The notes under the pieces: model-generated
What the model saw: only the letters and a program-made list of their open reading frames with translations
Told to the model about the DNA's origin: nothing
Databases searched by the model: none
Made by a program: the position numbers and the translations under genes
Assembly: GCA_016722635.1 (NCBI GenBank)
Contig: JADKIX010000005.1
Coordinates: 15,484-79,483, forward strand
Length of the DNA stretch: 64,000 nucleotides
DNA from: Rhodospirillaceae bacterium
GTDB taxonomy: Bacteria > Pseudomonadota > Alphaproteobacteria > JAEUKQ01
Direction of reading: 5' to 3'
Shown: in pieces, positions 9,105 to 39,856 of the stretch
Position numbering within the stretch: position 1 is the first letter of the stretch
Layout of the letters: the number at the start of each line of letters is the position of its first letter

Positions 9105-9184
9105 GATGGCTCCTTTCATCTCACGAACGGTCAATGGCAGCAATCGATCCGCAACCCACCTGATTGCTACAGCCATTGTACCAT

Positions 9185-14132: not shown

Positions 14133-14206
14133 TGATCACAGCGGACAAAAAGGGCAGCCAAGCTGCCCTTTCGTTAAACGCATTGCCTCACATTTATCAA
14201 GCATCC

Positions 14207-14410: not shown

Positions 14411-14962
14411 AGATCGTCCTTTTTCATCACCTTCTAAAAGATGGACTCAAACGATAAGAGTTCCAGAAAATAATAGTTTATTAGGTATCTTTTCTTCAAA
14501 TATTTTAGACTTCTCCTTCTACTCATTTAAAACTTAATAATTCTGGGGTAAGCTGTAAAATATAATATTCTCCATCACCCTGCTTTCTAATACCCATCCT
14601 TGTTTTAGGTATTCTTCAAAGTTTTGGCTCCCCCCTGTGATCCCAAACTGTCAATTGCGTATTATCTGGTGTGAATGATAATACTAATGAAGTTTGCTTT
14701 GAGTAATCATTGATTATTATTCTTTGCTTTATCAAATTTTTTAATTCCAAAGAATCCGCATGGTCACAGGTATTTCTTGATGTATTTTGAAGAGTTGCTG
14801 CGGGTTGAATAAGCGTTAAAATTTCTTCATTTTCAAAAGAGCTAACTAATTAATAAAGTTTGAAATTCTGTTCGGATCATTAGCCCGTTGTAATAATGCT
14901 TGTCTTTTAAAAGATCTGACATGGCCACCCTTATAATTTGGTAATATTGGGGTTCCATTTAT

Positions 14963-15487
14963 TCATAAATAGATGCCAATGATCTTGGTATTTGGTTGTA
15001 CAGTTCCTATATTGTTCTGTAAAGGGGTTTTTGAGGAGTTGGGTGTAGTGGCCTGTTGGCCAGGGGTTACCGTACTTTGGGGGTTGGCAAGATTGGCTTG
15101 GCCAGGGGTTAAGGAGTTATTCGGGTTGGCTAGTTGATTGCCGGGGTTAAGGGGTTGATTGCCAATGTTGTTACCGGGCGTGACAGCGCCCGGATTCAGG
15201 GCAGTGGCGGGATTGCCTGGGGTTGTGATATTCCCTGAGGTTGTGCTCCTGGGGTTGCCGTGGCAAGCCATTGCCTGGATTGGTGGGGATATTGGTATTG
15301 CCCTGGCTTGGGTGGATATTGAGGTTGGGGTTGGAGTGACCGATAGCGCATTATGGCCAGGGAACCGGGGCGGGGCTTGGGTAAGTTTATGTCCGATTAT
15401 GAAGTCCAACAACATCTGCACATTTGGGGGTGCGCCGAGTTCAGCGGCGAGTTGGCTGGCACCAGCGCCAGCGCCAGCGGCCAACAT
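14963..15487 (-). CDS. Truncated Pro/Asn/Gly/Thr-rich phage internal-region protein
   Basis: 174 aa. The reading frame leaves repeat B and stops after 12 codons of AT-rich insert DNA, and the native tail is at 13690-13908. The N-terminal limit is uncertain because an overlapping ORF 15397-15609 lies in another frame. Confidence 0.4.
   Translation of the reverse strand: MLAAGAGAGASQLAAELGAPPNVQMLLDFIIGHKLTQAPPRFPGHNALSVTPTPTSISTQARAIPISPPIQAMACHGNPRSTTSGNITTPGNPATALNPGAVTPGNNIGNQPLNPGNQLANPNNSLTPGQANLANPQSTVTPGQQATTPNSSKTPLQNNIGTVQPNTKIIGIYL
14996..15220. repeat. Direct repeat copy B (225 bp)
   Basis: See copy A. It lies inside the coding sequence of 14963-15487. Confidence 0.85.
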
Positions 15488-23840: not shown

Positions 23841-24095
23841 TTAATAATGAAAGCGGCATTGGTAGATGACTAGGCCATCACTCGTTACTTCATAAACCAA
23901 GCGATGTTCTTTAGTTATGCGTCTAGCCCACTTGCCACTTAATTCGTATTTTAAAGGTTCTGGATGGCCTATGCCAGTATATGGATGATCAATAATATCC
24001 TCAATCAATAATTTAATCTTTTTGATTTTTTGAGGGTTATTTTTCTTCCAGTATTCCCAATGTTTATCGCCATCCTCCGTAAAAACTATCCTCAC
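23841..24095 (-). CDS. yoeB: YoeB/Txe-family mRNA interferase toxin
   Basis: 84 aa. GHPEPLKYELSGKWARRITKEHRLVYEV...CRFHY is collinear with E. coli YoeB. Confidence 0.9.
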   Translation of the reverse strand: MRIVFTEDGDKHWEYWKKNNPQKIKKIKLLIEDIIDHPYTGIGHPEPLKYELSGKWARRITKEHRLVYEVTSDGLVIYQCRFHY

Positions 24096-24505
24096 AAATC
24101 AGCCAAATTTTTAACAATTACTTTTCCCTGCTTCAATTGCTCCATACTTTTAAATAATTCTTCAGCATTAGCAGGGCTACTTAACAAATAAGTAGTTGTG
24201 TCGTGTTTAATCTTATACTTGGCATCTTTTACATACTGCCTGATTTTAGGCAGAATATTTTCAACCTTCTTTAAGATTTCTAATGCAGAAATTTTTTTAG
24301 CTTCAATGGATAAATCTTTAAAAGATTTGCTAATGGCAAACATTTCATAAGACACCCAATTTGTATATGATTGAACTTGGGTATTTGATGTTTCTGATGA
24401 AATATCAGCTTCATCTTGCATTATTTTAAAAGCAGGAGAAGTAGAAGCCGCTCCATAAGCAGCCTCTTCAATATGGATATAGAATTGGCTATTATTTAGA
24501 TCCAT
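24092..24505 (-). CDS. Chimeric antitoxin with a YefM-type toxin-binding C-terminus on an unrelated N-terminal domain
   Basis: SD GAGGAG lies before MDLNN. The C-terminus TTYLLSSPANAEELFKSMEQLKQGK matches YefM [26 protein letters not shown]. The N-terminal ~100 aa do not look like the YefM/Phd fold. The stop overlaps the yoeB start. Confidence 0.6.
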   Translation of the reverse strand: MDLNNSQFYIHIEEAAYGAASTSPAFKIMQDEADISSETSNTQVQSYTNWVSYEMFAISKSFKDLSIEAKKISALEILKKVENILPKIRQYVKDAKYKIKHDTTTYLLSSPANAEELFKSMEQLKQGKVIVKNLADL

Positions 24506-24827
24506 GTTTTTTCTCCTCTTCATCATGCAACTTCATCTGCTCATTTAAAAGCTTTAAAGTTTGTCTCATAATTTCTGGTGAAAGAAATATCTTGGCTATG
24601 GATATTGCCTCCAAGGGCTGCTCTTCATTTTCAGTCTGACCAGAAATCGGAGTGTTAACACCCAATACGGACTGACCAAATATAAGATGCATTTCGTATT
24701 TATTACGCACCAATAAAACTTGATTAGCAAACAGGGTTGGCATATCTGCTTTAATTCTCCAATTTACTGGCCTTACCGCAGGAGAATTCAGTTCATTTTT
24801 AGATTTCTTCAATTGTTTGGCAGCCAT
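24492..24827 (-). CDS. DUF3467-like small protein
   Basis: SD AAGGAA. PTLFANQVLLVRNKYEMHLIFGQ resembles the DUF3467 core. It is the first gene of the AT-rich three-gene insert. Confidence 0.4.
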   Translation of the reverse strand: MAAKQLKKSKNELNSPAVRPVNWRIKADMPTLFANQVLLVRNKYEMHLIFGQSVLGVNTPISGQTENEEQPLEAISIAKIFLSPEIMRQTLKLLNEQMKLHDEEEKKHGSK

Positions 24828-26108: not shown

Positions 26109-27809
26109 TCATGAAACCGGCATCGGCATTTCCTGATCCGGTGGTTCGGCCATGGCCATATCCAGCTGATCAGCTACCTCTTTCACCGGTAAGCCTGCCT
26201 GCGACAAGTCACGCATGGCCCCGGCCATTGGCTTAGCCGCCGCCAACATCGATTGCATGCTTTGTTGTTGCCCGCGGCTGGCACGCAACTCCTCCACAGC
26301 TTGCGGGTCACGCAGGATACGGGCGGGTGCCCCGAACGCATCCAAAATGGCGCGGGCATAGGCATCGGCATCAATATTATCCATGATGGTGGGATCAAGT
26401 TGCGCCAAGGGTGATAAAGCCTCAACCGCCCGTAAAATCGCCGTACCTTCACTGGATTTTTGCGCCCGGGCTAAGGGCGAGACATATTCCACCCGTAATT
26501 TCAGCAAATCCTGCATCACCGGCGGTGACGGGGGGAATGCCCCGGCCCGCACCATCATATTAAACTGGCGGCTGATTAAGGGATCCAGGAATTCGCATTG
26601 CAAGCGCCCAAGATGCGGGCCCATCAGGCGCAATTTTTCTTCCTGCCGCACCAACACCTCGGTCGCGGTTTGGTTGGGTTGCTGCACGAGGAGCATGAGG
26701 GAGTGGAAAAAGGCTTCGCGGATGGCACCCCGCCGCTGTTCTTCAATTTCAAGCCCCAAATTCAAATTGCCACCGGTCAATAACGGCTCATATAACCGGC
26801 GGCCATTGGCATCCAACCCGCCATAAATGATCCCACCCGGGCTGGTGCGGATACCGCGCACCGCATTTTCATCGGTTGCCAGCAGGGGTGGGTCAACCGC
26901 CTTCTGCGCGCCAACGATCATGGTTTTGGACATGGTGTTGAGCATTTTCACATCCGGCAAGGCAAGCATCGCCGGGCTGTCCCCGTAAACGCCACGGGAA
27001 CGGGTTGACCAGCGCGGCACCATATAAGGGAATTCATGGAACCCCCCCTCCGCCAGTAAAATCTTTTCCTCCAAATTCACGTAGAAACTGGCCCAGTTCT
27101 TACCTTTGGCATCGAAGCGCTGCCGGTCAATATCCTCCCGTGGCATCACGCCATGCAGGAAGGTGAATTTACGGTCTGGCTCTTTTTCAGCCGCTTTCAT
27201 GATTTTCTCGCCGCAGGTTTTTCCCCAACGTTGCAAGGCTTGCCGGGCCGTCCAGGAAAATTTGCGGATGACGGTATCGATATCGCCCCAATCATTTTCG
27301 GCAATAAAACATTCCATCAAGGGGCGGCAGGAATAATGGACGGCGTTTTGCCCAACCGCCTCCTCCACATAAAAAATACCGGTGCCGAAAGACACCAAAT
27401 CAGCGTATAAATCCATGACACGGCTATAAAAACGGCCGCCATGGGCTGAAAAGGCATCACGCATGCGGCGACTGGCATTATCCAGCCAACGGCGTGCTGT
27501 GAATTCCTGATTAAGCGCCGGATCTTGCGCTTGCAGGCTGAACCATTCATTGGCGGAATTGGTAATCATGCCCCACAGGCCTGCCGCCAATTGCTCGGCT
27601 GCTAAGGAAGCCGTGCCGTCATATTGTTTTTGCAGGCGTTTTTCCCCCGCCTGACGCGGAAAAACCCCATTGCCCAGGGTAAAATCGGCCCGCATCGGGT
27701 TAACCAATTCGGCAATTTCCTGCCAATGTTGTTCAAGCGGCATCCTTTCGGCCGCCAGTTGTTCTTGCCGCCGGATAAGTTCCAAGGCGCGCTGTTCGGG
27801 AACTGCCAT
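26109..27809 (-). CDS. Portal (head-to-tail connector) protein
   Basis: 566 aa. The N-terminus RRQEQLAAERMPLEQHWQEIAELVNPMRADF and the overall length are typical of podovirus gp8-type portals. The position fits. Confidence 0.8.
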   Translation of the reverse strand: MAVPEQRALELIRRQEQLAAERMPLEQHWQEIAELVNPMRADFTLGNGVFPRQAGEKRLQKQYDGTASLAAEQLAAGLWGMITNSANEWFSLQAQDPALNQEFTARRWLDNASRRMRDAFSAHGGRFYSRVMDLYADLVSFGTGIFYVEEAVGQNAVHYSCRPLMECFIAENDWGDIDTVIRKFSWTARQALQRWGKTCGEKIMKAAEKEPDRKFTFLHGVMPREDIDRQRFDAKGKNWASFYVNLEEKILLAEGGFHEFPYMVPRWSTRSRGVYGDSPAMLALPDVKMLNTMSKTMIVGAQKAVDPPLLATDENAVRGIRTSPGGIIYGGLDANGRRLYEPLLTGGNLNLGLEIEEQRRGAIREAFFHSLMLLVQQPNQTATEVLVRQEEKLRLMGPHLGRLQCEFLDPLISRQFNMMVRAGAFPPSPPVMQDLLKLRVEYVSPLARAQKSSEGTAILRAVEALSPLAQLDPTIMDNIDADAYARAILDAFGAPARILRDPQAVEELRASRGQQQSMQSMLAAAKPMAGAMRDLSQAGLPVKEVADQLDMAMAEPPDQEMPMPVS

Positions 27810-27812
27810 ATT

Positions 27813-28016
27813 TTATTCCCCCAACAATTTTTTGGTATAACTGGGGGCCGCCCCTAAAACAGTTTCATCCGCCGAAAGTAAGGTTGATGAACGCCCTTTG
27901 GCCAGGCGCGCGCGGCGCCTTTCCTCCTCCATCGCCGCTAAAACATCCGCATCCGACCGTTGTGGTGCTTCGGGAAGTTTTGGTGGTTTCGGTGTTTTAA
28001 ATGGTCCTTTGCACAT
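27813..28016 (-). CDS. Small basic phage protein upstream of portal
   Basis: 67 aa (KTPKPPKLPEAPQ...EEERRRARLAKGRSSTLL). Proteins of this kind recur in this slot of alphaproteobacterial podophages. Confidence 0.45.
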   Translation of the reverse strand: MCKGPFKTPKPPKLPEAPQRSDADVLAAMEEERRRARLAKGRSSTLLSADETVLGAAPSYTKKLLGE

Positions 28017-28476
28017 ATTTTTTCTCCCATGAAAAAAGAATGAAGTCTTCCTGGTTTTTTCCGTACTTTCGCAAAACGGCTTCGGGCTCTGCCCCCAAAT
28101 ATTTCAGCCAGCGATGAACCACTGGCCTATCCGCAATCGCCATACATTCCGCCCGGTGCGCGTGCTTTGATAAAATAAAGGGAATGAATTGGCGGCGGAG
28201 GTGACGGGTCACCTTGGCCCCAACCGCAGGCCAATCGTCCGTCGCAAACAGCCAGACCGACCATACGCCCGGCCACATTTCAACCGCACCGAAGGCGGCA
28301 ACGGGCGTATGGTCATGGCTGAGCGCCAATTGCCCAAAATTGGTGCCTTCATAGAGCTGCTGGGCAAATTCCTGCTCATCCTGCCGCCAGCGGGTGGCAA
28401 AAATCTCGCGCCGGTCATCTCTGCGCATATGCTGGACAACATATGCAAGGCTTGGCAAATGAAGCGGTTGGAACAT
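27997..28476 (-). CDS. Phage protein, possibly acyltransferase-like (DUF2833-type?)
   Basis: The start is at the internal Met MFQPLHLPSL. 159 aa. It is the first gene of the contiguous portal-to-lysis block. Confidence 0.3.
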   Translation of the reverse strand: MFQPLHLPSLAYVVQHMRRDDRREIFATRWRQDEQEFAQQLYEGTNFGQLALSHDHTPVAAFGAVEMWPGVWSVWLFATDDWPAVGAKVTRHLRRQFIPFILSKHAHRAECMAIADRPVVHRWLKYLGAEPEAVLRKYGKNQEDFILFSWEKKYVQRTI

Positions 28477-28770
28477 GCTGTGCCCCTGAAAAAGATAAAA
28501 TGAAAATTGTTGGGTAAAATAGCAGGCAGGCCATGGGCAAACCGAAACACCCGCCACCGCAGCCAAATGAATAATCAGGATATTTTTGAAAATATCATGG
28601 CCCTGAAGACAGATAAGGGCATCATCCGTTGCCTGGCAAAACGGTGCTTAGCTGATGAATGATTGATTTCAATTGCAGAAGGTCGATTGGCATAGGATGG
28701 ATTGCTTGGCCGCACGTATTCTTGACCTGGGTCATGTAAACTTGGGAAATTGAAAAACCGGGGATTGGGC

Positions 28771-28802
28771 AAAAAAAAACCAACACTCGTTAAAGTGTTG
28801 GT
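28771..28802 (-). terminator. Rho-independent terminator
   Basis: On the minus strand, an 8-bp stem ACCAACAC/GTGTTGGT with an 8-nt loop is followed by a run of nine T. Confidence 0.6.
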
Positions 28803-28879
28803 TCAACCTCTTCCCTGATAACATACGGTATACGTGTAAAAACTGCCTATTTATATTTATAATGTTCTTTAAACATCAT
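28771..28879 (-). ncRNA. Candidate ~110-nt small transcript (promoter-like box to terminator)
   Basis: Minus strand: TTGACA (28914-28909), a 17-nt spacer, then TATCGT (28891-28886). About 110 nt follow, ending in the terminator above. The only ORF inside is 10 codons. Confidence 0.25.
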
Positions 28880-29238
28880 ACTTTCACGATACCCACCTTT
28901 ATTACCAATGTCAATAAAAAAAATAAGGCATGTTTTATTGTTGCATTAAAAACTTAAAAAATTGCTGACCGTAAATATATCAGCCTGTTACGTGGCATTT
29001 GTAATAACTTATTTTTCATCAATTACCAGCATCATAAAGCTCCTTCCCTAAAAATGTGGTGGTGTTAGTATAGGGAATTTTCTTGCTTTTTCAAATATTG
29101 CTAGCCTTTGATAAAAAAATGAGCCAAATATTCCAACCAACGCAACGGGATGGCGCTTAAGGTACTGGGCCACAAGGTTAAACCGCCCTACACATTAAGG
29201 ATGGCGGATGAAATTATCCCTACCGAATGTTCCCCTGG

Positions 29239-29817
29239 TTAGCAGCCATAATCAACGGATAGATGAAAAATTTGTTGCAATAATTGTTGCGCCAACAATT
29301 CGGGGCGCACCCCTTGCACCGGCCATTTGCAACCTTGCTGGCTGGGTAATCCCGATTGCTGGCGCTTGTGAATGACATTCCCCGGTCCTTGGATAAAGCT
29401 TTCAAGCATGACATAGCTCCCCCCGCCTTGTTCCACCATCTGTCCAATCATCACCCCCCTTAATTGCTGCTGGTTTTGATCTATAATGGCTGCAAAACCG
29501 TAAGGACAAATTTCCTTAAATTTTTGTCCTGGCCCCAATTCCATGAGATTAGATGTTTTCCTACAATAATAACCCATGACAACAACCGCTTGGTCAACCT
29601 GTTGGCGGGTGATGGCCAGCGGCAGCTGATTCATATAAGACCAATTTTCTGGCCCAATCAATTTTTGCAACTGCTGCTGCCAATCTTCACCCCATATTGC
29701 CTGGAAGGACTGATGACCCTTAGAAATTCCCGGATCAGGCGATTGGGCGGCGGCGGGATAGGATGCCATCAGGCAAAAACAGCGAAGCCACAGAAGAACC
29801 CTAGATATTTTGATCAT
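29239..29817 (-). CDS. Exported Ivy-like protein, family 1 member A
   Basis: Internal Met with signal MIKISRVLLWLRCFCLMASYPAAA. Core VVVMGYYCRKTS...C and the C-terminal family motif. Confidence 0.5.
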   Translation of the reverse strand: MIKISRVLLWLRCFCLMASYPAAAQSPDPGISKGHQSFQAIWGEDWQQQLQKLIGPENWSYMNQLPLAITRQQVDQAVVVMGYYCRKTSNLMELGPGQKFKEICPYGFAAIIDQNQQQLRGVMIGQMVEQGGGSYVMLESFIQGPGNVIHKRQQSGLPSQQGCKWPVQGVRPELLAQQLLQQIFHLSVDYGC

Positions 29818-29942
29818 TCTTATCTTTTCCCCTTTGCCTGTTACCGATAAAAAATATTTCGCAGGATATACCAAAAGCCATAATCATGCCATAATCATCC
29901 GGTAATGATTTGTATGATGACCATTAAAAGGACTTTTTAGCT

Positions 29943-30566
29943 GTGAAAAATATTCCGCCCATCGTTTTACTACTTCTATCCTGTTTTTATTTCCCACAAC
30001 CAGCCAGCGCTTGTGAACCATCCCCTGCAGGGCTTCCTGCCCTTGATGCGTATATAGGCCATCCCTCCAACCACCGCATCCAAGCCCAATCACTGTCCTT
30101 CACTTTATTCGATGTAGCATCTTTCCAAATTTCCGCCAAATTTGCAGGCGATGACGGATGTATAGTGGCCGCAAAGATCAGCGAATTAGATGAAGGTGAT
30201 CATTTCCCGATTGTTGCCAAAATTGGCAATTGGTTGGTCGGGCAAAGTTACGGTTGTGACCATGATGGTTGTTATGATGTAGGCATGATTGCCTATAACA
30301 CCGTTTCCGGTGAGATCGGTGGATGCTTGATGGATGGCAAACAGGCCTATGACGGGGATTCGCCTTTTAAAATACCCGGTGAGAATCTGGTCATCTTCGG
30401 CTCAAAAGATGGCGGATATATGATCAACCTTAATCTTGGGAACACCAGTCAACTGCCCGGATATGTGTATGGTTGCGGCTCCCCCACTCAGGATGCCCAA
30501 CAGATTTTAACCCGTTGGCAATTCTTTGACCAAATCATGGCGCTGTCCAACCGGTTGGGCAAATAA
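29943..30566 (+). CDS. Exported Ivy-like protein, family 1 member B
   Basis: It has a signal peptide. The core NWLVGQSYGCDHDGCYDVGMIAY has the same strand-C-x4-C-strand layout as the Ivy CKPHDC loop. The C-terminus is YGCGSPTQDAQQILTRWQ. Confidence 0.55.
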   Translation: MKNIPPIVLLLLSCFYFPQPASACEPSPAGLPALDAYIGHPSNHRIQAQSLSFTLFDVASFQISAKFAGDDGCIVAAKISELDEGDHFPIVAKIGNWLVGQSYGCDHDGCYDVGMIAYNTVSGEIGGCLMDGKQAYDGDSPFKIPGENLVIFGSKDGGYMINLNLGNTSQLPGYVYGCGSPTQDAQQILTRWQFFDQIMALSNRLGK

Positions 30567-30585
30567 TTTTGAGGTGCTTGATCAC

Positions 30586-31305
30586 ATGATAGGAATTCGT
30601 TTTTATTTTGTTTTTATATTGGCTTTCGCTTTGCCTTTGATTAAAGTCCAGGGCCAAAATGTCAGCGCCAGTTGTGAATATGTAGGCGAATCTGCAGGCC
30701 AGCGGCAATATGATTGTAATTTAGGGGCAGCAACCATTGCCGATTGGGTGGGGTATTATCCCGGAGATATGAGAAGATTGGGTGCACAAGGCCAACAGGT
30801 GAATTTTTACCAATTCCTCCTGGGCCAGCCGGAACTTTTTGAAAATATTCCTGAACCCGACCTTGCTTACTTGCGGCAGCAGTTGCAGCAACAAGCGGAT
30901 GATTTGGTGCGGCAAATCCATACAGCCGACTTGTACCCTAAAATCACCCAAGTGCAAGATTGGGTGATCGTCCAAAGTTATCGCTGTGATCCCAACATGT
31001 GCGTTGATTTATCGGTTTTGATGGTTGATACCACGAACCAACATATCACTGTTTGTATCCTTTCCCTACCCTCTACCCTCATTTCCCTAAGCTCCCTGAC
31101 CCCTGCCCTGATTGGGGAACTGGCAGTGCAAATCTTCACCTCATTTCCAGATAGGAAGGGATACAGCTTTTCAAGGCCCATGCAGGAATTGCGACAAGAA
31201 CCAGGATATGCTTGCGGCAACCCCAGCCATAATCCCTCACTAATCCTTAAAAATTTGCAAATGCTTGAAAAAAACTTGATTGAGCACGATCCCCATCATC
31301 CATAA
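30586..31305 (+). CDS. Exported Ivy-like protein, family 1 member C
   Basis: Internal Met with signal MIGIRFYFVFILAFALPLIKVQG. Core WVIVQSYRCDPNMCVDLSVLMVD. Confidence 0.55.
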   Translation: MIGIRFYFVFILAFALPLIKVQGQNVSASCEYVGESAGQRQYDCNLGAATIADWVGYYPGDMRRLGAQGQQVNFYQFLLGQPELFENIPEPDLAYLRQQLQQQADDLVRQIHTADLYPKITQVQDWVIVQSYRCDPNMCVDLSVLMVDTTNQHITVCILSLPSTLISLSSLTPALIGELAVQIFTSFPDRKGYSFSRPMQELRQEPGYACGNPSHNPSLILKNLQMLEKNLIEHDPHHP

Positions 31306-31402
31306 AAATTCAGGAGTAGATCATGATGCAGCTCGCCTCTTTTTTTAGCCTTTTTCTTCTATCCGTTGGTTAAGAAGAATAGGTTTAACTTTACTTTTAT
31401 TA

Positions 31403-32020
31403 ATGGCGTCAATTCCCTCCCCCGTGTTTGCGGACGAATATTACACCCTCAGTGGCTGGGTGGGGCAAAATCCTTTCGCAGGCACGGGAAATAAGCAGGG
31501 GAAAATCTTATATGAAGATCCGCAATTCAAGGCGATTTTTTTACATTTGCTTGAGGCAAATATGCCTCCCCTAATGGCAGAACAATTATGGCAAAGCATC
31601 TTGAAGCAAGATTCTTACGCGCAAGTGGTGAAAGTTGATAATTTTGTCCTGGTGATGGGATTTAATTGCAGATGGCAAGGCTGCCCGGAACATCATGTCT
31701 TTTTTTACGAAGAAATTGGCGATGGCGCCCGGGTAGGTATCTGCACCTCTGTTTTAGAGCCAGCGAGTGCCAGTCAAGATCAGAACGGTGTCATTGCACA
31801 AAAATTCCGCCAGCGCTTGCAATTTTATGGTTCTGGCTGGCCGGGATCGGTTGATATCCGTTTTTCCCCACTAGCCGCCTTTCCTGATATGCGCGGCAGG
31901 TTCTCACCTACCCCCGGCGGCAGGGGTTGCTTCGGCAGTGGCCTTCCCACCCCCAACCCTGCAACCGCTTTGCAAATATGGCAAGAAATAGGACAAAAAA
32001 TGCAATTAGGGTTACCGTAG
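31403..32020 (+). CDS. Ivy-like protein, family 1 member D (N-terminal signal apparently disrupted)
   Basis: Core FVLVMGFNCRWQGCPEHHVFFYE. The upstream frame reads ..RRIGLTLLLLMASIPSPVFA without a start codon, and a separate short ORF MMQLASFFSLFLLSVG (31323-) lies in another frame. Confidence 0.5.
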   Translation: MASIPSPVFADEYYTLSGWVGQNPFAGTGNKQGKILYEDPQFKAIFLHLLEANMPPLMAEQLWQSILKQDSYAQVVKVDNFVLVMGFNCRWQGCPEHHVFFYEEIGDGARVGICTSVLEPASASQDQNGVIAQKFRQRLQFYGSGWPGSVDIRFSPLAAFPDMRGRFSPTPGGRGCFGSGLPTPNPATALQIWQEIGQKMQLGLP

Positions 32021-32188
32021 AAGTAAGGTTTCTTATCTCCATTATCCCTCCATAATAACCTCAGCAAAGATACGGCGATATTTATCGTTAAAATGGAAAA
32101 TAGTGTTTGGTCGCCGGTGGTTAATGCTGCATCGAATATAGGCTATTTACTGTTCTTTAGTCAATCGGTCCCGGTTGAGGAGGCCGAT

Positions 32189-33100
32189 TTACAATTGGCC
32201 TTTCTTTTCCATAAATTTTTCAAGCTGTTCCAACCGGTTGGCAATGGGCGGATGGCTGTTGGTATACATAACCATAAACCCGTATCTGGGGCGATATTCA
32301 ATCTGGCTAATATCTTCAAAAAATTCTCGTAACCCGGCCGCATAGCCCAGTTCAGCCGAAAAACGGTCGGCACGGAATTCCACGCGTCGGCTGTTTAAAG
32401 AAACAATGAACCAGGCTATCCCTTCAATCATCTTGCTAACCCCTGCCAATAACATAAAGGGCAGCAAGGCCATTAGGATAAAGCCACTGATAGCACCCTC
32501 ACTATCATCGTTATCATCCTTTTTTCTTTTCTTCGGTGGTTCATCCGCCATAAAAATAGCGACAATGCCCCCGAATATCCGTGCTAACAAATTAATCCCC
32601 CGCATTGCCATTAGCAGCGCCGAGTCACCATGGTATAAATGGCCCAATTCATGCCCGATCACCGCGGCAATTTGGTCATCATCGCTTGCCAAAAGCCCCT
32701 GGGTCAAAATAAGGGTGGAATGGCCCAGGGCCTGCGCTTGGGGTATGGGATCATCGATAATATATAATTTGACTTTTTTGTTTTTCCCTGTCCTTTGCCG
32801 GTAGCGGCGCATGATTTCCTGCATCAAGGGCTGCAAGCGTTCTTTTTCCCTTTTAACCAGCCGACGCATGGGGAAAAACAGGCGCGAAAACCACTCATTT
32901 AATGGCGAGGCGCCAATAACCGCTAAAATGACAATAACAGCAATGGACATGCCCATCCACCATAATGGGCCAAATTGAGCTTCAAAGGATGATCTTGGCA
33001 ATATTTTATCGCCCTGCGATACCCCTATGACGAAACATCCTATCTGCCAAACAAACAGCCAGTTGGCAAAAGCAGTCACGGTAATAGCAAAATAACGCAT
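32189..33100 (-). CDS. Polytopic M48-family (HtpX-like) zinc metalloprotease
   Basis: 303 aa. It carries HELGHLYHGD (HExxH), the downstream EFRADRFSA, SHPPIANR and about four hydrophobic helices. The start lies 3 nt after the stop of 33104-34939. Confidence 0.8.
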   Translation of the reverse strand: MRYFAITVTAFANWLFVWQIGCFVIGVSQGDKILPRSSFEAQFGPLWWMGMSIAVIVILAVIGASPLNEWFSRLFFPMRRLVKREKERLQPLMQEIMRRYRQRTGKNKKVKLYIIDDPIPQAQALGHSTLILTQGLLASDDDQIAAVIGHELGHLYHGDSALLMAMRGINLLARIFGGIVAIFMADEPPKKRKKDDNDDSEGAISGFILMALLPFMLLAGVSKMIEGIAWFIVSLNSRRVEFRADRFSAELGYAAGLREFFEDISQIEYRPRYGFMVMYTNSHPPIANRLEQLEKFMEKKGQL

Positions 33101-33103
33101 GGG

Positions 33104-34939
33104 TTACCCCTGTTCTTGTAATATATTGCTTAAAGAAAGGCGAAGTTTATATAGCTTATGATCACTTTTCGTTACCATCACTGCCTCACCAAGCTTCAGC
33201 CGTTTTATTTCATCCGGCTGGATAACGTAATCCCGAACCCGGCGGACCCCATCCTGGCTATCTAACCAAGTTAGCTGATATTTTTCCTTCATCCCGATCA
33301 CTTCAACCAACATCCGGGCATCATCTGGGTTATTCTGCCGCTGGATGATATAATTGTTGCAATTGGCAATCACCTGACTTAATAGATAATCCCTGTATTC
33401 AGGCTGGGAACGCGCAATATCGCCAAGGCTTTGCGCGGTTACAACCATATTAAAGCCAGCGGCCCGGGATTGATTCAATAAACCAATTAATGGCGGGCCC
33501 GCTAAGGGGCCCAGTTCATCAACAATCACAAAGAAATTGTCTTTGATGGTTTTTTGTAATTGTTGGGCGGCAAAGGCTTTTAGATCGCTTAAGATCAATT
33601 GCATCAATTTGGATAAAATCGCTGGCATGTCCAAGCTTGGTAAACTGAAACAGATCACCGCCCCCTGCTGAATGGCTTGAGGAATTACCAAATGGCTGGG
33701 ATTTGGGGGCGATGTCGATTGCTGAGACGGCCCTGATGAACGGAAAACATGGCCAATCTGGGAATGAACCAGCCCCTGCAGGTGCCGCTGAACCTCTTCA
33801 AGCGTTTCTGGCGGAATCAATGGCTCTTCCGCTGGTTGATTAAACTGGATTACCCTGCCATCCCGGGAAGCAGGTTTTTGCTCCTGCAGCAGTTTCTTTA
33901 AAACCCCTGGGCGGATGTAGGTAGAAATTTCGCCTAGGTTGGGTTGCATCCCCAACCACTCAAAAACAGAAAACATGAACGCTAAATAGTTTAAAACTGC
34001 CTGGTCAGCCGCCAAACCGCTGTCCAGCAATAAGGCTAACCGTTCGGCCTTTGCTGAAAAACCACCTGTGATAAAAGGATGATAGGTTGTCAGGGTATGA
34101 ATGCCTATAACGTAACAAGGACGGCCTGATTTTTTGGCGTAGCTTGCAATATTATCCACCAAAACACGGTCGCCTTTGCCATCCATATAAAGGATCGGTT
34201 TTGCCCGGTTAATGGCGCTTTCCATGATCATGCAGGAAAGATTGGTTTTACCGCTTCCGGTCGTTCCCAAGATGAGGGTATGGGTATTCGCTTGCAGGTC
34301 TGTTAAATAAACAGCTGCGCCCGAATTTTTATCTTTGCCAATGAACGTACGGCCCGAATCTTCGATCGGTTTAGCGGCGCCAACCTGATTGTTGCTGGCG
34401 CGGGCGGTAAATAATTGGGGTGGCACCAACAGGTTTTCCGTGACCGCTTTCCCGTGAAACAGCCATCGCCAAGGCCGATGGGTATAAAATTCCCAGATTA
34501 ACAGCATAAGACCCGTACACAAGAAGGCAATTGGGATAAATTCTATCCAATTCCTGGTATCTTGCATCCAAACCCAGAACCCTTTTCCCCATAAACTTAC
34601 CCAAATTTTGGCCAGCTGGATTTTGCCTTGGAACAATTTATCTAAGCTAAACCCTGCCAAGGCCTGTTCATAGGCAATCCCAACCCGTTTTAACGGGGCA
34701 GCCAGCCACTGCCATTTCAAAACCCAGCCTATGCGCCAAAGACCCGTAACAAAGGCCAAAGCAATAAAAAACACCCCCCCTCCATAGCGGACATGCAAGA
34801 AACGGCTTCCTATAAAAAGCAGCAATGTCATCAGAAAACCAAGGGGCCCGGCAATAGCTAGGACAGCGCCCAGCATTCCCACCATCAACACTCCCCCAAG
34901 TAGGTTATAAAAAAAACGGATGCTGAAAAATGACGACAT
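33104..34939 (-). CDS. Membrane-anchored TraD/TraG/VirD4-like (T4CP-like) P-loop NTPase
   Basis: 611 aa with about four N-terminal TM helices. Walker A is LILGTTGSGKTN and Walker B is FFVIVDELGPL. The block VVTAQSLGDI...NCNNYIIQRQNNPDDARMLVEVIG is typical of coupling proteins. Confidence 0.7.
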   Translation of the reverse strand: MSSFFSIRFFYNLLGGVLMVGMLGAVLAIAGPLGFLMTLLLFIGSRFLHVRYGGGVFFIALAFVTGLWRIGWVLKWQWLAAPLKRVGIAYEQALAGFSLDKLFQGKIQLAKIWVSLWGKGFWVWMQDTRNWIEFIPIAFLCTGLMLLIWEFYTHRPWRWLFHGKAVTENLLVPPQLFTARASNNQVGAAKPIEDSGRTFIGKDKNSGAAVYLTDLQANTHTLILGTTGSGKTNLSCMIMESAINRAKPILYMDGKGDRVLVDNIASYAKKSGRPCYVIGIHTLTTYHPFITGGFSAKAERLALLLDSGLAADQAVLNYLAFMFSVFEWLGMQPNLGEISTYIRPGVLKKLLQEQKPASRDGRVIQFNQPAEEPLIPPETLEEVQRHLQGLVHSQIGHVFRSSGPSQQSTSPPNPSHLVIPQAIQQGAVICFSLPSLDMPAILSKLMQLILSDLKAFAAQQLQKTIKDNFFVIVDELGPLAGPPLIGLLNQSRAAGFNMVVTAQSLGDIARSQPEYRDYLLSQVIANCNNYIIQRQNNPDDARMLVEVIGMKEKYQLTWLDSQDGVRRVRDYVIQPDEIKRLKLGEAVMVTKSDHKLYKLRLSLSNILQEQG

Positions 34940-35195
34940 TCTGAACCTATGCCAAAGCCAGTACGCAGGAAAAGCGGTGATTAGAAAAAGCTATTTCATC
35001 TTAATAAGCGCTGGGCGCTTTATCAATATTTTATTTTCTGATGATGAATTGCCAGCAACCAGGCGGTGATCCTGTGACAAGTGGTTCCATGCCATGATAG
35101 GCGTTGCATAAAAAATTCCGCAAGCGCAGGTTTTTTTCAATTGCCGCGTCTTATTTAGTAACAAGGTTATTTTATCTTTTACATGAAGGAGATAT

Positions 35196-35672
35196 TTGAT
35201 GAATTCTTTCCTACGGTATTCTTGCATTGCCACATTCACGTCGATTCTGATGGGAACGAGTGCCATGGCCCAAAAGCCCGAACAAAACCCGGGCCATACC
35301 CCGCCAAGCGGCCAGACGATGTTTAATTATTTGGATAAAAACGGCGATGGCACTATCAGCCGGGAAGAATTTGACAAAGCCCGTCAAGAACGCCAAAACC
35401 GTCAGCAACAAAGTGGCGGACAGCACCGCGAGCTTGGTGATAACCGCACCCCTTACCAAGCACAAGGCAACCACCAACAGGGGGATGGTCACCATCATGA
35501 GCAGCGCCAGCGTTGGATAAACGTGATGTATGACCGGGCTGATCGCAACCAAGATGGCGTGGTTAGCAAGGGGGAATTTTTGATCCGGGCAGAAAAATTG
35601 TTTGAGCGTCTGGATAAGAATGAGGATGGGTTATTGCAGAAAAATGAATTGAAGCACTCAAAAAATCAATAA
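35196..35672 (+). CDS. Exported EF-hand calcium-binding protein
   Basis: SD AAGGAG and a signal peptide. Three EF loops: DKNGDGTISREEF, DRNQDGVVSKGEF and DKNEDGLLQKNEL. Confidence 0.75.
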   Translation: MMNSFLRYSCIATFTSILMGTSAMAQKPEQNPGHTPPSGQTMFNYLDKNGDGTISREEFDKARQERQNRQQQSGGQHRELGDNRTPYQAQGNHQQGDGHHHEQRQRWINVMYDRADRNQDGVVSKGEFLIRAEKLFERLDKNEDGLLQKNELKHSKNQ

Positions 35673-35853
35673 AATATCAAGGAAAATTGCGGGTTCCTGA
35701 CCTCATCGATAACCGATTATTGTTACTAAGGGGAAATTGGCCAGATGACAAGCCGGTTTCCCCTTGATCAATCGGACATAACCAGAAACCTAACTTGATA
35801 TCACGACCCGTTTAGGATTATCCTGAGAACTCGCCACCTGAACCCCGTGGTTC

Positions 35854-36429
35854 TTATTTCCCCAGCAATATTTGCAACGCTTGCCATTGTTTAATCGCCT
35901 TTTCCGCATCACCGTGGCCACAATCAGCGAATTGGTCGGTTGCATTGAAAACTAATTGACCGGCAGGAATATAATATTGCACTTTAACCAGGGTAATATG
36001 TAAGGGGCGATCTTTACCCGAAGGTTCATTGGCATCGGGATAATACGGGTATACCCGGCTATGTGATGCTAAACAAACCCCTGCCACTTGCTGGGTAGTC
36101 GTGTCTAGAAAAATACTCAGATCCGTATCGCCCGGATTATTTTTCAAATGGCCGCTAACCACCAGCCAATGATCCATTTGACCGACCGGTTGGGCAAAAA
36201 CATAGGTTTTCCAAAGTTCGTTCCACTGCTGCAATGGGATCAGCTGTTCAATACCTTGCCGAAAGGTTGGATGTTCAAACAAGGTCATGCCCAAAATTTC
36301 TTGATCCGGCTGACTGCCAACCCATTTTTCAAATTTCGGCAATTGGCTAAGCACGCGCGCATCAAGCGGCTGGGACAAAATTGCCAAACTTAAACATATC
36401 AAAACGAAGCCATATAATTTTTTGATCAT
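35854..36429 (-). CDS. Exported Ivy-like protein, family 1 member E (loop cysteines lost)
   Basis: It has a signal peptide and the same layout (HPTFRQGIEQL...WLVVSGHLKNNPGDTDLSIFLD). The C-terminus FADCGHGDAEKAIKQWQALQ matches the family. Confidence 0.45.
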   Translation of the reverse strand: MIKKLYGFVLICLSLAILSQPLDARVLSQLPKFEKWVGSQPDQEILGMTLFEHPTFRQGIEQLIPLQQWNELWKTYVFAQPVGQMDHWLVVSGHLKNNPGDTDLSIFLDTTTQQVAGVCLASHSRVYPYYPDANEPSGKDRPLHITLVKVQYYIPAGQLVFNATDQFADCGHGDAEKAIKQWQALQILLGK

Positions 36430-36473
36430 CGCCTCTCACTTTCTTTTTAGTCAGGTTACGACGCAGCTTAGGC

Positions 36474-36597
36474 TTATTTCCGCACTAATTTCAGAACTTC
36501 TTGCCATTGACGGATCACTTGTTGCAAGTCATCACCCCCACAATTCTCAACAGAGCATGCTTAAAATGACCATAAGATAACAATAAAAGCGTTTCAT
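36474..36597 (-). pseudogene. Remnant of a family 1 gene (signal peptide fused out of frame to the C-terminal motif)
   Basis: MKRFYCYLMVILSMLC ends in a stop. The next frame reads ENCGGDDLQQVIRQWQEVLKLVRK, which matches the C-terminus of 35854-36429. Confidence 0.45.
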
Positions 36598-36614
36598 CAT
36601 CCCCATATTCCCTC

Positions 36615-37004
36615 TCAATAGGGCAATGGATGGGTTTGATAGAAATCATGGCAAGCTTGCTTCTTTTCTACACTAATGATACCCAGCGTCAGCATCTCCT
36701 CACAAAAACTTTGGGACGTGAGGGGGATATAGGGACCAACTAAATCTCTTCCATAGAACCTTCTTTTAACAGCCCCATCCGCCAATACAGATTCGCAGGT
36801 GGTCAATTCTTGATCAGCTTCATTGGCAAAATCTTGTAAAGTCACCCCCTCTTTTAATAACCCAGCATCCTTTAATGCCTGGCAATAGGGCTGCATATTT
36901 GCTTCAACGCAGGGCAAACAAATTTTTATTGCCAGCAATCCGGTAATTGGCATCACGCTTAGGATCATTGCTAAAAATACAGTTCTTATCTTCCTGATTC
37001 CCAT
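36615..37004 (-). CDS. Exported Cys-rich small protein
   Basis: 129 aa with an N-terminal hydrophobic anchor or signal and seven Cys. Confidence 0.45.
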   Translation of the reverse strand: MGIRKIRTVFLAMILSVMPITGLLAIKICLPCVEANMQPYCQALKDAGLLKEGVTLQDFANEADQELTTCESVLADGAVKRRFYGRDLVGPYIPLTSQSFCEEMLTLGIISVEKKQACHDFYQTHPLPY

Positions 37005-37217
37005 TTTCCTTACCCATCATCATTAAAGTTACAGCCTATATAATCCTTAATTATGGCTTTTTTGTGGCACTCCGATCAACCCCTAGCCAATGCCGCCGTT
37101 TTCTATATTATCCAGCTTAGAACCTGTTTTTTGCTTGACCTTTCCCCATCTGTAACTTGACTTATGCCTAAAATATATTGAAGATGCGCTAGGTGTTGCA
37201 AAAAATGGTGAGAACAG

Positions 37218-38342
37218 ATGGCACTTCATAAAAAAATCGCTCGACTGATCAAAAATGGTGAATTTCTTTACTGGATTAACAAAAAATGGCGGATTTGGCG
37301 TAAACGCAAAGCTTCCTCCCTGGGCCTGCCAGCCATATCCGAAAAAGTCATCCGGCAGCCAGTGGTTGTAGACTTGCCGGAGCGCGACCCCAACAAAGCC
37401 CCTGCCGTCAGCGACCAAAATTTTCCCTATCAATTGATGGCCGCGGTGATCATTAAAAATGAAGCGCCTTATATGGTTGAGTGGTTGGAATTTCACCGGT
37501 TGGTTGGCATCCAAAAAATCATCATTTATGATAATGGCAGCTCCGATAATATTCAGGAACTTTTAAAGCCTTATATCCTAGAGGGTTATGTAGAACTGAT
37601 CCCCTGGCCCAATTTCTTATTCCAATATAATCACCAGCATCTTTGTTATGCCCATGTCGTCCGCTACACCGCCCAAATGACCAAATGGCTGGCTATTATC
37701 GATGCCGACGAGTTTTTGTTTTCCCCAACCGGCCGACCCTTGCCACAAATTTTGGCACAATATGGCGATATCCCCATCCTGGGCGCTGCCATGCGGATTT
37801 TCGGGTTTTCGGGGCATGAAAAAAAACCGCAAGGATTGGTAACCGAAAACTTCCTCTACCGCTTTGCTGACCATGAGCCGGAAAGTAATCAATACCGCTC
37901 AATCGTGCAGCCACGCTTGGTGCGCTCGATCATTAGCGCTGCACGTTACCATCATTTACTGAATAACGTCCCTGCTTATGATGAAGACCGCAACCCGCTG
38001 CATAACTGGCCAACCGAAAAACCCTTAAACAGCATTCAGCTGCGGGTGAACCATTATCTCACCAAATCACGGGAAGAATTTATGCAGAAAATCAGCCGTC
38101 AATATTTCGTGCCACTGGAAAGATATCTGAAGCGTTATAAGAAAAAATATAAAACCCAAGCACAAAAAGATCAAATTGCCGCAGATTGGGCCAAATGGAC
38201 GCAGGCATCTAAGATGAAAATGCACCAGAAGATTTTTAATACGCCGCTAGAAAATTTCGTGTTGGATCAGGAGATTTTGATGTACCAGGCCCAACTGCAG
38301 GAAGCCATCCGTCAGCGTTTATTGCAGATAGCTGATGTTTAA
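37218..38342 (+). CDS. Glycosyltransferase (GT2/GT92-like fold)
   Basis: The motif AAVIIKNEAPYMVEWLEFHRLVGIQKIIIYDNGSSDN and the DADEF acidic motif. No TM segments. Confidence 0.6.
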   Translation: MALHKKIARLIKNGEFLYWINKKWRIWRKRKASSLGLPAISEKVIRQPVVVDLPERDPNKAPAVSDQNFPYQLMAAVIIKNEAPYMVEWLEFHRLVGIQKIIIYDNGSSDNIQELLKPYILEGYVELIPWPNFLFQYNHQHLCYAHVVRYTAQMTKWLAIIDADEFLFSPTGRPLPQILAQYGDIPILGAAMRIFGFSGHEKKPQGLVTENFLYRFADHEPESNQYRSIVQPRLVRSIISAARYHHLLNNVPAYDEDRNPLHNWPTEKPLNSIQLRVNHYLTKSREEFMQKISRQYFVPLERYLKRYKKKYKTQAQKDQIAADWAKWTQASKMKMHQKIFNTPLENFVLDQEILMYQAQLQEAIRQRLLQIADV

Positions 38343-38587
38343 AACTTTTAACAGTTTGTAAGGCTTATCCGGGTTTGTTTTTTGGGGCTATTCCACTTAA
38401 GGTCTAGTGTTTATGGCAGTATTTTAGCTTCTTTAACAGCTGTTGGTGGTTACCTCGATTGAAGTGCCACGCACCATCCTTCAGGAAGCAGTGAAAATTC
38501 TTCTTTTGGATGCCATGAAGCGACTCCTTCTCTCCTACATATTGCCATCCTAGCAAACCCGCTGGATGCAATAGCCCCTAGATCCAT

Positions 38588-39856
38588 TCACCACCCGAAC
38601 GGGTTATAGTCAGCGTTGGTTTGGCCGGGGGTAGGCAACGCGCGGGTGCGGTCACGCCAGCCGACCGCTAAATAGCGGAAGGCATCGGCGGCGTGGCTGG
38701 CCCAATCATGCAAGGGGCTGGCGCGGAAGGTTTGGCCCTTATCATCCCATTCGCGTCTGTATTGCCGCAGCGCCTCAATCCCCCGCCCGCAGCGATTGAT
38801 ATCAAACTGGCATTGCGGCAATAATTGGCGCACCGCGTTAATGCCATCCTCCAGCGACAATTTGGGCACAATCCGTCCCTTGATCCCCAATTGCTTGAGG
38901 GTCTCGAGGCGGCTGCGGCCCGTGCCAAGTTCCCGTACCTCCGCATCATGGGGCAGCAAATGCTCGCCGTATTTATAGGGTTTGGCCGCCAATTGGCTGG
39001 CATAATAATCCAAGCCCACCCCGCTGGCCTCCACATAATCCACCACCGCCAGCCTTCCGGCCTGTTGCTGGTAAAACCAAATCACCGTGCTGTCGCCAAT
39101 CCCCAAATCCCAGGCCGTATGCACCGGCAAATCCGGCTGGATGGATAAGGTTGCAAGCGCCCCCTGCTGCTCCAGCCTATTCATCATTTCGCCGTAATAA
39201 GCGCCCTGCACGGCGGCTTGGAAACTGCACTCAAACTCCTGCGCGTATTGATCCGGGCTCATTACCTGCTTGGCGGCGGCCAGTTCATCAAGGGGCAACA
39301 GGCCGGTTTCACTGGCTTTCAAGCGAAAGGTAAACCAGGTTGGATCCAGCTTGGCTTGTTCATAAAGCTTGCAAAAAGCATTGCGCCCCATCGGTGTGCC
39401 GATAAAAACCACCCAGCCCTGCCGGTCGGCCAGCGACGGCCTTATCACCTCGGTCCAAATACGCGGGGACATTTGGGCATATTCATCAAGAACCACGCCG
39501 TCCAGATAAAGCCCGCGCAAGCGTTCCGGGTTATCCGCCCCATACAGGCGCACCCGCGCCCCATTCGGAAAATCCACCCGCAATTCACTTTCATGGAATT
39601 TCACCCCAGGGACAGCGCGGCTATAATGTTTGACATATTCCCAGGCAATATCCTTGGCTTGCACAAAAAACGGGGCAATATAGGCAAAGCGTGGCTGGTT
39701 GCGCTTAGAGCTTAAAGCCCCTTTAATCAATTCGTTGATGCAGGCCACGGTTTTGCCAGCGCGGCGATGGGCCACCCCCACCGCAAAACGCTGCGGGCGT
39801 TGGTGTAGGGGCTTAAAAGCCGCACGCGGGCGATAAGGAATGGTAATGGCGGGCAT
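38588..39856 (-). CDS. terL: Terminase large subunit
   Basis: 422 aa. Walker A is HRRAGKT and Walker B is VVLDEYA. The nuclease half carries WDLGIGDSTVIW and LLPHDA. Confidence 0.85.
   Translation of the reverse strand: MPAITIPYRPRAAFKPLHQRPQRFAVGVAHRRAGKTVACINELIKGALSSKRNQPRFAYIAPFFVQAKDIAWEYVKHYSRAVPGVKFHESELRVDFPNGARVRLYGADNPERLRGLYLDGVVLDEYAQMSPRIWTEVIRPSLADRQGWVVFIGTPMGRNAFCKLYEQAKLDPTWFTFRLKASETGLLPLDELAAAKQVMSPDQYAQEFECSFQAAVQGAYYGEMMNRLEQQGALATLSIQPDLPVHTAWDLGIGDSTVIWFYQQQAGRLAVVDYVEASGVGLDYYASQLAAKPYKYGEHLLPHDAEVRELGTGRSRLETLKQLGIKGRIVPKLSLEDGINAVRQLLPQCQFDINRCGRGIEALRQYRREWDDKGQTFRASPLHDWASHAADAFRYLAVGWRDRTRALPTPGQTNADYNPFGW

Follow-up and report, generated by a model that had tools for sequence, protein, structure and literature searches.

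A multi-copy family of exported prophage proteins from wastewater Alphaproteobacteria with a likely distant relationship to the lysozyme inhibitor Ivy

The locus and its exported paralogues

The 64,000-nucleotide stretch of DNA analysed here (the window; positions 15,484 to 79,483 of contig JADKIX010000005.1, assembly GCA_016722635.1, from a Rhodospirillaceae bacterium, with all coordinates below counted from its first nucleotide) is a segment of the chromosome of a wastewater alphaproteobacterium and carries a prophage, the genes of which start approximately 3 kb into the window. Between the portal and large terminase genes of this prophage lies a variable accessory (moron) island that harbors five genes, denoted A to E. 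Together with two decayed remnants, these genes constitute one small, unannotated family of Sec-exported proteins of approximately 190–240 amino acids (Table 1), which appears to be distantly related to Ivy-type inhibitors.

A first-pass annotation, made from the sequence alone, had grouped four adjacent genes (A to D), a fifth copy (E) and one remnant into a single family. Homology was assessed with leave-one-subfamily-out hidden Markov models (HMMs) that were scored against all 1232 open reading frames of the window. These models recovered B (E = 3e-10), C (2e-12), D (2e-12) and E (3e-35), with no unrelated reading frame scoring above them, and gave A only E = 0.014. In pairwise BLASTP comparisons, the similarity between B and C was clear (1e-12) and that between B and E weaker (3e-5), and the alignment became coherent once the orthologues and paralogues of related loci had been added. 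Comparison of A with the rest of the family by hhalign (probability 79 %, E = 1.6e-5) put it in the right register, with a 14-residue insertion within the loop; on the strength of this match and the leave-out score, we count A as a probable but divergent member. The proposed grouping is thus borne out by the HMMs and the alignment, with A as its weakest component.

Family members have in common a signal peptide, followed by a WVGxxP motif, a helical region and a hydrophobic strand that leads into a variable hairpin loop and a second strand; then come a strand ending in G-[VI]-C and a C-terminal CG...WQ helix. Both the alignment and a structural model of B agree with the shared layout given in the first-pass annotation. 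Signal peptides with a basic n-region, a hydrophobic core and an AxA-like site were seen by inspection in A (MIKISRVLLWLRCFCLMASYPAAAQ), B, C and E; that of D is present in the D orthologues and frameshifted in the window. The copies differ mainly in the hairpin loop, in both its sequence and its length. The loop reads CDHDGC in B, CDPNMC in C and CRWQGC in D, and in A it is enlarged, with 18 residues between the bracketing cysteines (C-x18-C; CRKTSNLMELGPGQKFKEIC). Gene E, which represents the largest and most diverse subfamily, has the cysteine-free loop LKNNPGDT. The three loop strings quoted in the first-pass annotation match the sequence exactly. Orthologues of A are P0006, P0008 and P0011, and C stands out by a longer N-terminal helical region. 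Because the signal peptide of B ends in ...PASA followed by a cysteine at position +1, the B product may be a lipoprotein; distant B-like relatives also have this cysteine, in one case within a canonical LSAC lipobox.

Gene D is broken in the window by a -1 frameshift in a run of thymines, T5 at 31351-31355, which cuts the ATG and the n-region (MMQLASFFSLF...) off the remaining signal peptide. At this site, the D orthologue P0001 reads MMQLASFFSLFSSIRWLRR, and near-identical contigs from two other sludge metagenomes (runs X2 and X3) have a T inserted behind 31350, which makes the run T6, so that D is intact in those two sludge populations. Set against P0001 and the T6 contigs, the disruption of the signal peptide that had been reported at 31323-31405 is real in the assembled sequence, although the T5 of the window may be an assembly error. 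The frameshift lies in a T7...T5 homopolymer region (31340-31356). In a third population, D is joined at the same point to a different 5' end (MRPLAPSFN...), and a relative from compost shows the joint of a 358-bp tandem duplication, from 31708 to 31351. The 5' end of D is a hot spot of recombination and slippage. Phase variation at the T run is possible, populations with T5 and with T6 both having been seen, in each case as contigs.

The remnant that the first-pass annotation had placed at 36474-36597 also proved genuine, with adjusted bounds. It was delineated by tblastn with the L004 and L005 paralogues (P0023 type) and consists of the N- and C-terminal ends of an E-like paralogue: the first approximately 15 codons (36600-36556) are fused out of frame to the last approximately 26 (36560-36483). 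The parent is a 182-residue E-like protein that is intact in related phages and has suffered an internal deletion here. The second remnant, absent from the earlier finding, is located outside the terminase-portal island, among morons of the tail-fibre region.

Distribution and gene turnover

A word-seeded search of 5.8 billion proteins returned close orthologues only, none of them named and none with a Pfam domain. Because word-seeded searches reach no further than close orthologues, an exhaustive hmmsearch of 1.84 billion (1.84e9) cluster representatives (E <= 1e-3) was needed, and it returned just 30 proteins. All family contexts with enough flanking sequence represent the same type of island beside the terminase (terL) or portal gene, in which GT92 glycosyltransferases, exported EF-hand proteins, EamA transporters, methyltransferases and toxin–antitoxin pairs are recurrent partners. 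The exported EF-hand protein and the exported 129-residue protein encoded in the window are also conserved alongside the Ivy-like genes in related islands. So far, the family has been seen only in the terminase-portal island of one podovirus-like prophage lineage in wastewater Alphaproteobacteria. Activated sludge is the source of the host relatives, which are uncultured Alphaproteobacteria, and sludge and wastewater metagenomes dated 2016 to 2025 contain the locus repeatedly. Among 50,697 GenBank phage records, no relative was found by tblastn with B, E or an Ivy-like protein; a nucleotide search of the GenBank phage genomes gave no match, and a pattern scan of IMG/VR with E found no relative either.

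In the islands of related phages, the copy number ranges from 2 to 7, and copies have been acquired, lost or turned into pseudogenes. Compared with the five genes and two remnants of the window, there are six copies in L004 and L005, which lack C and have two extra E-like genes (L005 also contains D-like fragments), five to six in L001 and L002, where D is frameshifted, seven within 11 kb in L017, and five or more, arranged in tandem within 3.8 kb, in L015. Because copy number varies and pseudogenes occur among these related phages, we conclude that the family evolves by gene birth and death, as had been surmised from the window.

Relation to Ivy

Searches of general phage and defence collections were uninformative: PHROGs yielded nothing meaningful for the family copies, and B and E were unmatched in PADLOC. 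Matches of family copies to LPD15 (0.053) and to a tail-fibre PHROG (0.006) were dismissed as noise. Barring one repeat protein, which we regard as spurious, the only outsiders among the results of the exhaustive search were P0025, P0032, P0035-P0038 and P0040 (E from 1.4e-7 to 7.5e-4). All these proteins carry C[KMR]PH[DYE]C between two hydrophobic strands together with a WVGKYP motif. A search seeded with them led to 90 proteins, most of which bear a precomputed PF08816 label and some of which, from Sphingobium, are named 'Ivy family c-type lysozyme inhibitor'. The top four PDB matches of a profile of this Ivy-like group (88 sequences) are the four solved Ivy sequences (Escherichia coli 1GPQ and 1XS0, 3e-5; Pseudomonas aeruginosa 1UUZ and 4PS6, 3e-3). 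Individually, 39 of the 88 members match Pfam Ivy (best 1.9e-6), and hhalign pairs the group with E. coli Ivy at a probability of 92.8 % (E = 4e-7).

After removal of the signal peptides, the family matched the Ivy-like group with a probability of 98.6 % (hhalign, E = 6.6e-16) over 85-90 collinear columns, whereas the best of 20 column-shuffled controls reached a probability of 0.6 % (E = 0.096). Both cysteines of the C-x4-C loop in B, C and D align to both cysteines of C-K-P-H-D-C, and the WVGxxP motif and the following G-V-C strand also match in register. Given this profile match and that of the group to solved Ivy, the comparisons support placing the family as a distant branch of the Ivy superfamily (PF08816), with a link that is transitive via the Ivy-like group. 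The part that aligns as homologous in these profiles is the N-terminal, approximately 90-residue portion of the mature proteins, which holds WVGxxP, two helices, a beta-strand, the hairpin loop, another beta-strand and a third strand with a conserved cysteine. The alignment likewise supports the hairpin loop of the family as the positional equivalent of the disulfide-closed CKPHDC loop of Ivy.

Structural model of B

Ivy is composed of helices, a five-stranded antiparallel sheet and an amphipathic helix. A first AlphaFold2 run, based on a 15-sequence alignment, was poor (predicted local distance difference test, pLDDT, 66), and its Foldseek result was meaningless; with a 51-sequence alignment, the model of mature B reached a pLDDT of 85.7 and a predicted template modelling score (pTM) of 0.83. 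The helices predicted by this model span residues 32-43, 47-61 and 162-183, and its strands residues 69-71, 74-83, 86-96, 102-108, 125-130 and 136-141. Cys82 and Cys87 lie on the two long strands and His84-Asp85 forms a two-residue turn between strands 74-83 and 86-96, so that the loop of B is modelled as the tip of a tight hairpin. The order of secondary structure elements in the model is compatible with Ivy.

Selection and divergence of the loop

Entropy among the paralogues peaks in the loop columns, and the length of the loop varies from 4 to 18 residues. Ratios of nonsynonymous to synonymous substitution rates (dN/dS) of 0.13-0.53 between orthologue pairs indicate that these are real genes under purifying selection; one higher ratio, 0.89 (A, window versus L004), rests on only 13 changes. 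Strong gene-wide diversifying selection was considered and is rejected by the same range of values. Within lineages, the loops of B and D are more conserved than the remainder of each protein: CRWQGC is invariant in D orthologues down to approximately 26 % overall identity, and three of the four interior residues of the B loop are retained at 41 % identity. In contrast, the loops of A (12/18 versus 89 % for the rest of the protein in one comparison, 5/18 versus 61 % in another) and E (2/8 versus 73 %) change faster than the proteins that carry them. Because the B and D loops are conserved within lineages and those of A and E are fast, the functional divergence between the paralogues is old and ongoing loop change is limited to some of them (A and E). 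A blanket arms-race signal is absent; the diversifying selection on the loop proposed in the first-pass annotation is therefore retained for A and E and dropped for B, D and the genes as wholes.

Expression

Metatranscriptome contigs from wastewater and sludge (99-100 % identical) overlap parts of B, D and E, and the same set overlaps the EF-hand gene, the gene for the 129-residue protein, the GT92 gene and the capsid gene. Within the 20-40 kb stretch, the RNA contigs do not cover tail tubular protein A, the terminase, or the pair of M48 peptidase and ATPase genes. These overlaps are a weak hint that B, D and E are transcribed, with DNA carry-over a possible source of such contigs.

Proposed function and alternative explanations

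Ivy inhibits C-type lysozyme by means of the disulfide-closed loop, which enters the active site of the enzyme. From the homology and anatomy described above, we infer a location, a class of target and a benefit to the host cell, namely that A to E bind or inhibit cell-wall-cleaving enzymes in the periplasm and thereby protect the lysogen, and we put the probability of this reading at roughly 0.5. The proteins would act in the periplasm of the lysogen, B perhaps tethered as a lipoprotein, and would bind or inhibit peptidoglycan-cleaving enzymes stoichiometrically, in the manner of Ivy with C-type lysozyme and the lytic transglycosylase MltB. Inhibition of MltB by the Ivy proteins of P. aeruginosa is stated in a passage of PMC10746161 that cites Clarke 2010. 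Each paralogue would have a loop suited to a different enzyme, giving one class of target for each copy. The likely targets would enter from outside: muralytic proteins carried by the virions of superinfecting phages, muramidases that competitors deliver as effectors, or the lysozymes of grazers. On this view, the array would be cargo for lysogenic conversion or superinfection exclusion. A phage precedent is Spackle, encoded by T4, which inhibits the gp5 tail lysozyme in the periplasm and so brings about superinfection exclusion (PMC7677548), and an Ivy-like protein of E. coli with a CKANTC loop restricts T7 plaquing (bioRxiv 10.1101/2024.04.20.590424). Inhibition of enzymes coming from outside fits best, in our opinion, because it accommodates the homology, the export signals, the paralogue-specific hairpin and the location in a lysogenic-conversion island of envelope-directed genes. 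The chemistry of binding, however, would have to differ from that of canonical Ivy, since the active-site histidine is lost and the E-like members have no disulfide. More tentatively, the array might be a prophage 'library' of Ivy-scaffold inhibitors, each hairpin neutralising a different incoming cell-wall-cleaving enzyme. Such a library would shield the lysogen at the step of peptidoglycan penetration, as a broad and modular version of Spackle-type superinfection exclusion, and would evolve by gene birth and death, like arrays of immunity genes.

Several results weigh against an inhibitor function and against the Ivy relationship behind it. The link to Ivy is transitive only, and direct comparisons fail. 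The profile searches proposed in the first-pass annotation, for Pfam Ivy, PliC/MliC and PliG, were negative: when A to E were compared with Pfam by hmmscan, none of the three was hit at E <= 10. Nor was there a match in NCBIfam at E <= 1 (Ivy, NF007443) or of the family profile to PDB sequences, and hhalign of the family with E. coli Ivy alone gave a probability of 0.2 %. The main evidence against the link is the fold search with the model of B. Resemblance to Ivy structures was not recovered by Foldseek, which, among 350,542 PDB chains, found none with E <= 0.001 and no Ivy in the best 50; against BFVD, it returned nothing significant. Furthermore, the alignment to Ivy-like proteins covers the N-terminal half only; the strands and the long helix of the C-terminal half are peculiar to the family. 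The Ivy-like group keeps the P-H of the loop with at least 90 % conservation, but none of the A to E copies has it; only B has a loop histidine, one position earlier than that of Ivy. Gene E and most E-like members have no loop cysteines and hence no disulfide. The family genes have no muramidase or effector gene as a constant neighbour. Finally, the RNA contigs also overlap the capsid gene and may stem from DNA carry-over, and they leave lysogenic and lytic expression inseparable. The Ivy-like, CKPHDC-type arrangement claimed in the first-pass annotation accordingly survives as remote profile homology with aligned cysteines, but not as a match to a curated model or a fold, and not as regards the histidine.

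Because P-H is gone and the disulfide is missing from E-like proteins, a shift to non-muralytic partners is a serious rival, one that we hold to be possible, if unlikely. According to this explanation, an Ivy-derived scaffold was reused and no longer binds cell-wall hydrolases; its products could mask phage receptors, as T5 Llp or Cor do, or serve as periplasmic chaperones or adaptors for the exported proteins of the island. The family-specific C-terminal half would fit such a change, as would the RefSeq annotation, which also names E. coli Ivy a periplasmic chaperone, and the wealth of envelope-directed proteins in the island (the exported EF-hand protein and GT92, with EamA transporters in relatives). 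Yet the element that varies is exactly the inhibitory loop of Ivy, which the model retains as a protruding hairpin, and the B and D loops are strongly conserved in distant orthologues, as expected of a specific binding epitope; moreover, an Ivy-like protein with a non-canonical loop does have an anti-phage phenotype (bioRxiv 10.1101/2024.04.20.590424). A more radical objection, that there is no real relation to Ivy and that an orphan exported family acquired the short motifs (WVGxxP, strand-loop-strand) by convergence, could invoke the failure of the curated Ivy models and of direct comparisons with E. coli Ivy, along with a Foldseek search that returned no Ivy despite a confident model. We deem it improbable in view of the collinear hhalign match, compared with shuffled controls that all had E >= 0.096, the in-register agreement of both cysteines, WVGxxP and the G-V-C strand, and the fact that Ivy-like proteins were the sole outsiders in 1.84e9 representatives, bar the spurious repeat protein.

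The proteins could, alternatively, be directed at the phage or host itself, inhibiting the muralytic protein of the prophage or the lytic transglycosylases of the host and thus setting the timing of lysis or preventing leaky autolysis. Control of endogenous lytic transglycosylases has been put forward as a role of Ivy (PMC10746161), and this phage does encode an endolysin-like protein with a C-terminal membrane segment. However, a single resident enzyme leaves 5-7 divergent paralogues unexplained, the copies are freely gained and lost while the portal, scaffold and terminase genes next to them stay conserved across the compared loci, and the genes reside in an accessory island of mixed orientation rather than in a lysis cassette, which makes self-directed control hardly probable.

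Comparison with known inhibitors and significance

The likeness to Ivy (E. coli Ivy/YkfE; P. aeruginosa Ivyp1) lies in a small exported helix-plus-antiparallel-sheet protein with a hairpin closed by two cysteines (C-x4-C) at the same alignment position, and in the homology through the intermediate group. Unlike Ivy, the family has no direct profile or Foldseek match, no CKPHDC and no active-site histidine; its members are larger, with a C-terminal part of their own (extra strands, the CG...WQ helix and a second probable disulfide), and they are multi-copy and phage-borne, whereas Ivy is single-copy and chromosomal. The closest outside relatives are the Ivy-like WVGKYP/C-x-P-H-x-C proteins (Sphingobium P0095 and P0100; metagenomic P0025 and P0037), which share WVGxxP, the helical region, the strand-Cys-loop-Cys-strand unit and the following VC strand. 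The named members of this group come from Alphaproteobacteria, the class of the host, and some are lipoproteins, as B may be; they differ from A to E in keeping the P-H of the loop, in their length of 150-180 residues and in a different C-terminal part. MliC/PliC, PliG and PliI are, similarly, periplasmic or lipoprotein inhibitors of peptidoglycan hydrolases, but MliC/PliC and PliG have no sequence similarity to the family (Pfam, E <= 10) and their folds are different. Arrays of immunity genes against type VI secretion, in acquired interbacterial defence clusters, offer a precedent for batteries of divergent periplasmic inhibitors, although the island described here has neither effector genes nor a type VI secretion context.

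Two further systems bear on the proposed role. T4 Spackle (gp61.3) is a functional model for it (PMC7677548), but has an all-helical, unrelated fold, is a single gene of a lytic phage and shows no sequence relation that we could find; furthermore, the function of Spackle has been demonstrated, whereas for A to E a comparable one is proposed. Hypo_04657 of E. coli O121 combines an Ivy fold with the CKANTC loop, and its knock-down raises T7 plating (bioRxiv 10.1101/2024.04.20.590424). Encoded by a single chromosomal gene, it carries a helical or transmembrane domain at its C terminus, and it superposes closely on Ivy with a reported root-mean-square deviation of 0.81 A, in contrast to the window family, for which Foldseek found no Ivy.

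If the proposed function is correct, a fast-turnover, multi-copy phage family built on the Ivy scaffold would protect lysogens at wall penetration against phages and competitors, the Ivy superfamily would gain a branch that is missed by the current Pfam and NCBIfam models, and the loop variants would form a natural set for studies of inhibitor specificity. To our knowledge, the protein inhibitors of lysozymes and of lytic transglycosylases described so far are each encoded by a single gene on the chromosome, and we know of only one well-characterised case of protection of this kind at the wall-penetration step, the unrelated T4 Spackle. Such inhibitors have been studied mainly for their part in defence against animal lysozyme or as regulators of autolysins. 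Even without muramidase inhibition, the family would be a clean case of an accessory family confined to one hot spot of a phage lineage.

Neighbouring genes and other features of the prophage

Table 1. Features of the window, with coordinates counted from its first nucleotide
Feature	Coordinates	Strand	Description
Host genes fmt, truA, GST	17-2443		Left end of the window; part of the bacterial chromosome
Endolysin-like muralytic gene	3038-3706	−	PHROG 873, 2.7e-54; PDB 7Q47 endolysin, 7e-22
Remnant 2	7941-8250	−	P0042-like, with stop codons; hmmsearch match and tblastn with L016_166-819
Tandem lipoprotein genes	8255-8641, 8727-9176, 9185-9523	−	Three paralogues within 8255-9523
Low-GC stretch	12000-15000		3 kb within the structural region
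YoeB-like toxin and upstream partner	23841-24526	−	84 and 144 aa
Capsid gene			In the prophage structural region; PF19821
Portal gene	26109-27809	−	Left flank of the island
Accessory (moron) island	27810-38587	mixed	Portal-terminase interval, 10.8 kb
Gene A	29239-29817	−	192 aa from ATG at MIKISR; most divergent paralogue
Gene B	29943-30566	+	207 aa
Gene C	30586-31305	+	About 239 aa from ATG at MIGIRF
Gene D	31323-32020	+	Frameshifted
M48 peptidase and ATPase	32189-34939	−	Peptidase PF01435, 1e-23
Exported EF-hand calcium-binding protein	35196-35672	+	PF13202, 8e-16
Gene E	35854-36429	−	191 aa
Remnant 1 (stub)	36483-36600	−	E-like
Exported cysteine-containing protein	36615-37004	−	129 aa; no family match
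Large terminase gene	38588-39856	−	Right flank of the island
Inverse-autotransporter beta-domain protein	52545-55100	−	Beta-helix passenger
Fic/DOC protein	57732-58901	+	
AbiEii toxin-like nucleotidyltransferase	59946-60614	+	Adjoins a low-GC segment

The G+C content of the island is 0.44-0.48, compared with 0.53-0.57 in the flanking structural genes, and a scan of the island for promoters and terminators gave a result no better than that for shuffled sequence. In addition to the Ivy-like family, its cargo comprises the M48 peptidase, a mad8/TraG-like ATPase, the exported EF-hand and 129-residue proteins and a GT92 glycosyltransferase. The M48 peptidase gene lies directly downstream of the gene for the ATPase, a membrane-anchored protein of the TraG/VirD4/HerA type that is hit by the PADLOC model mad8 (methylation-associated defence system) at 6e-22. 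Both genes occur in the window and in L001-L003 and are missing from the otherwise syntenic islands of L004 and L005; given this patchy presence, the pair behaves as a mobile two-gene cassette, and it may be a defence module.

Outside the island, the prophage encodes tail fibres and tail tubular proteins A and B. The muralytic protein ends in a hydrophobic segment (YWPWASALLMVAGIAWIIWAKL), on account of which it is predicted to be tethered, probably, to the membrane via its C terminus. The three tandem small lipoproteins form another exported multi-copy family of the prophage, with LAGC lipoboxes, a common WVGK...LGAP motif and a C-terminal GDGCF or ESGCF; the third copy has no signal peptide start. 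A 3-kb stretch with a G+C content of 0.35 interrupts the structural region and is probably a further inserted accessory block.

A YoeB-like toxin (the L001 orthologue of which is labelled PF06769) and its partner occupy a low-GC (0.33) insert between the capsid and scaffold genes, and ParE or PIN toxin-antitoxin pairs sit at other positions in related phages. The genes toward the right end of the window (52545-60614), namely those for the inverse-autotransporter protein, the Fic/DOC protein and the AbiEii toxin-like nucleotidyltransferase with its adjoining segment of 0.32 G+C, represent either more accessory or defence cargo or the boundary of the prophage.

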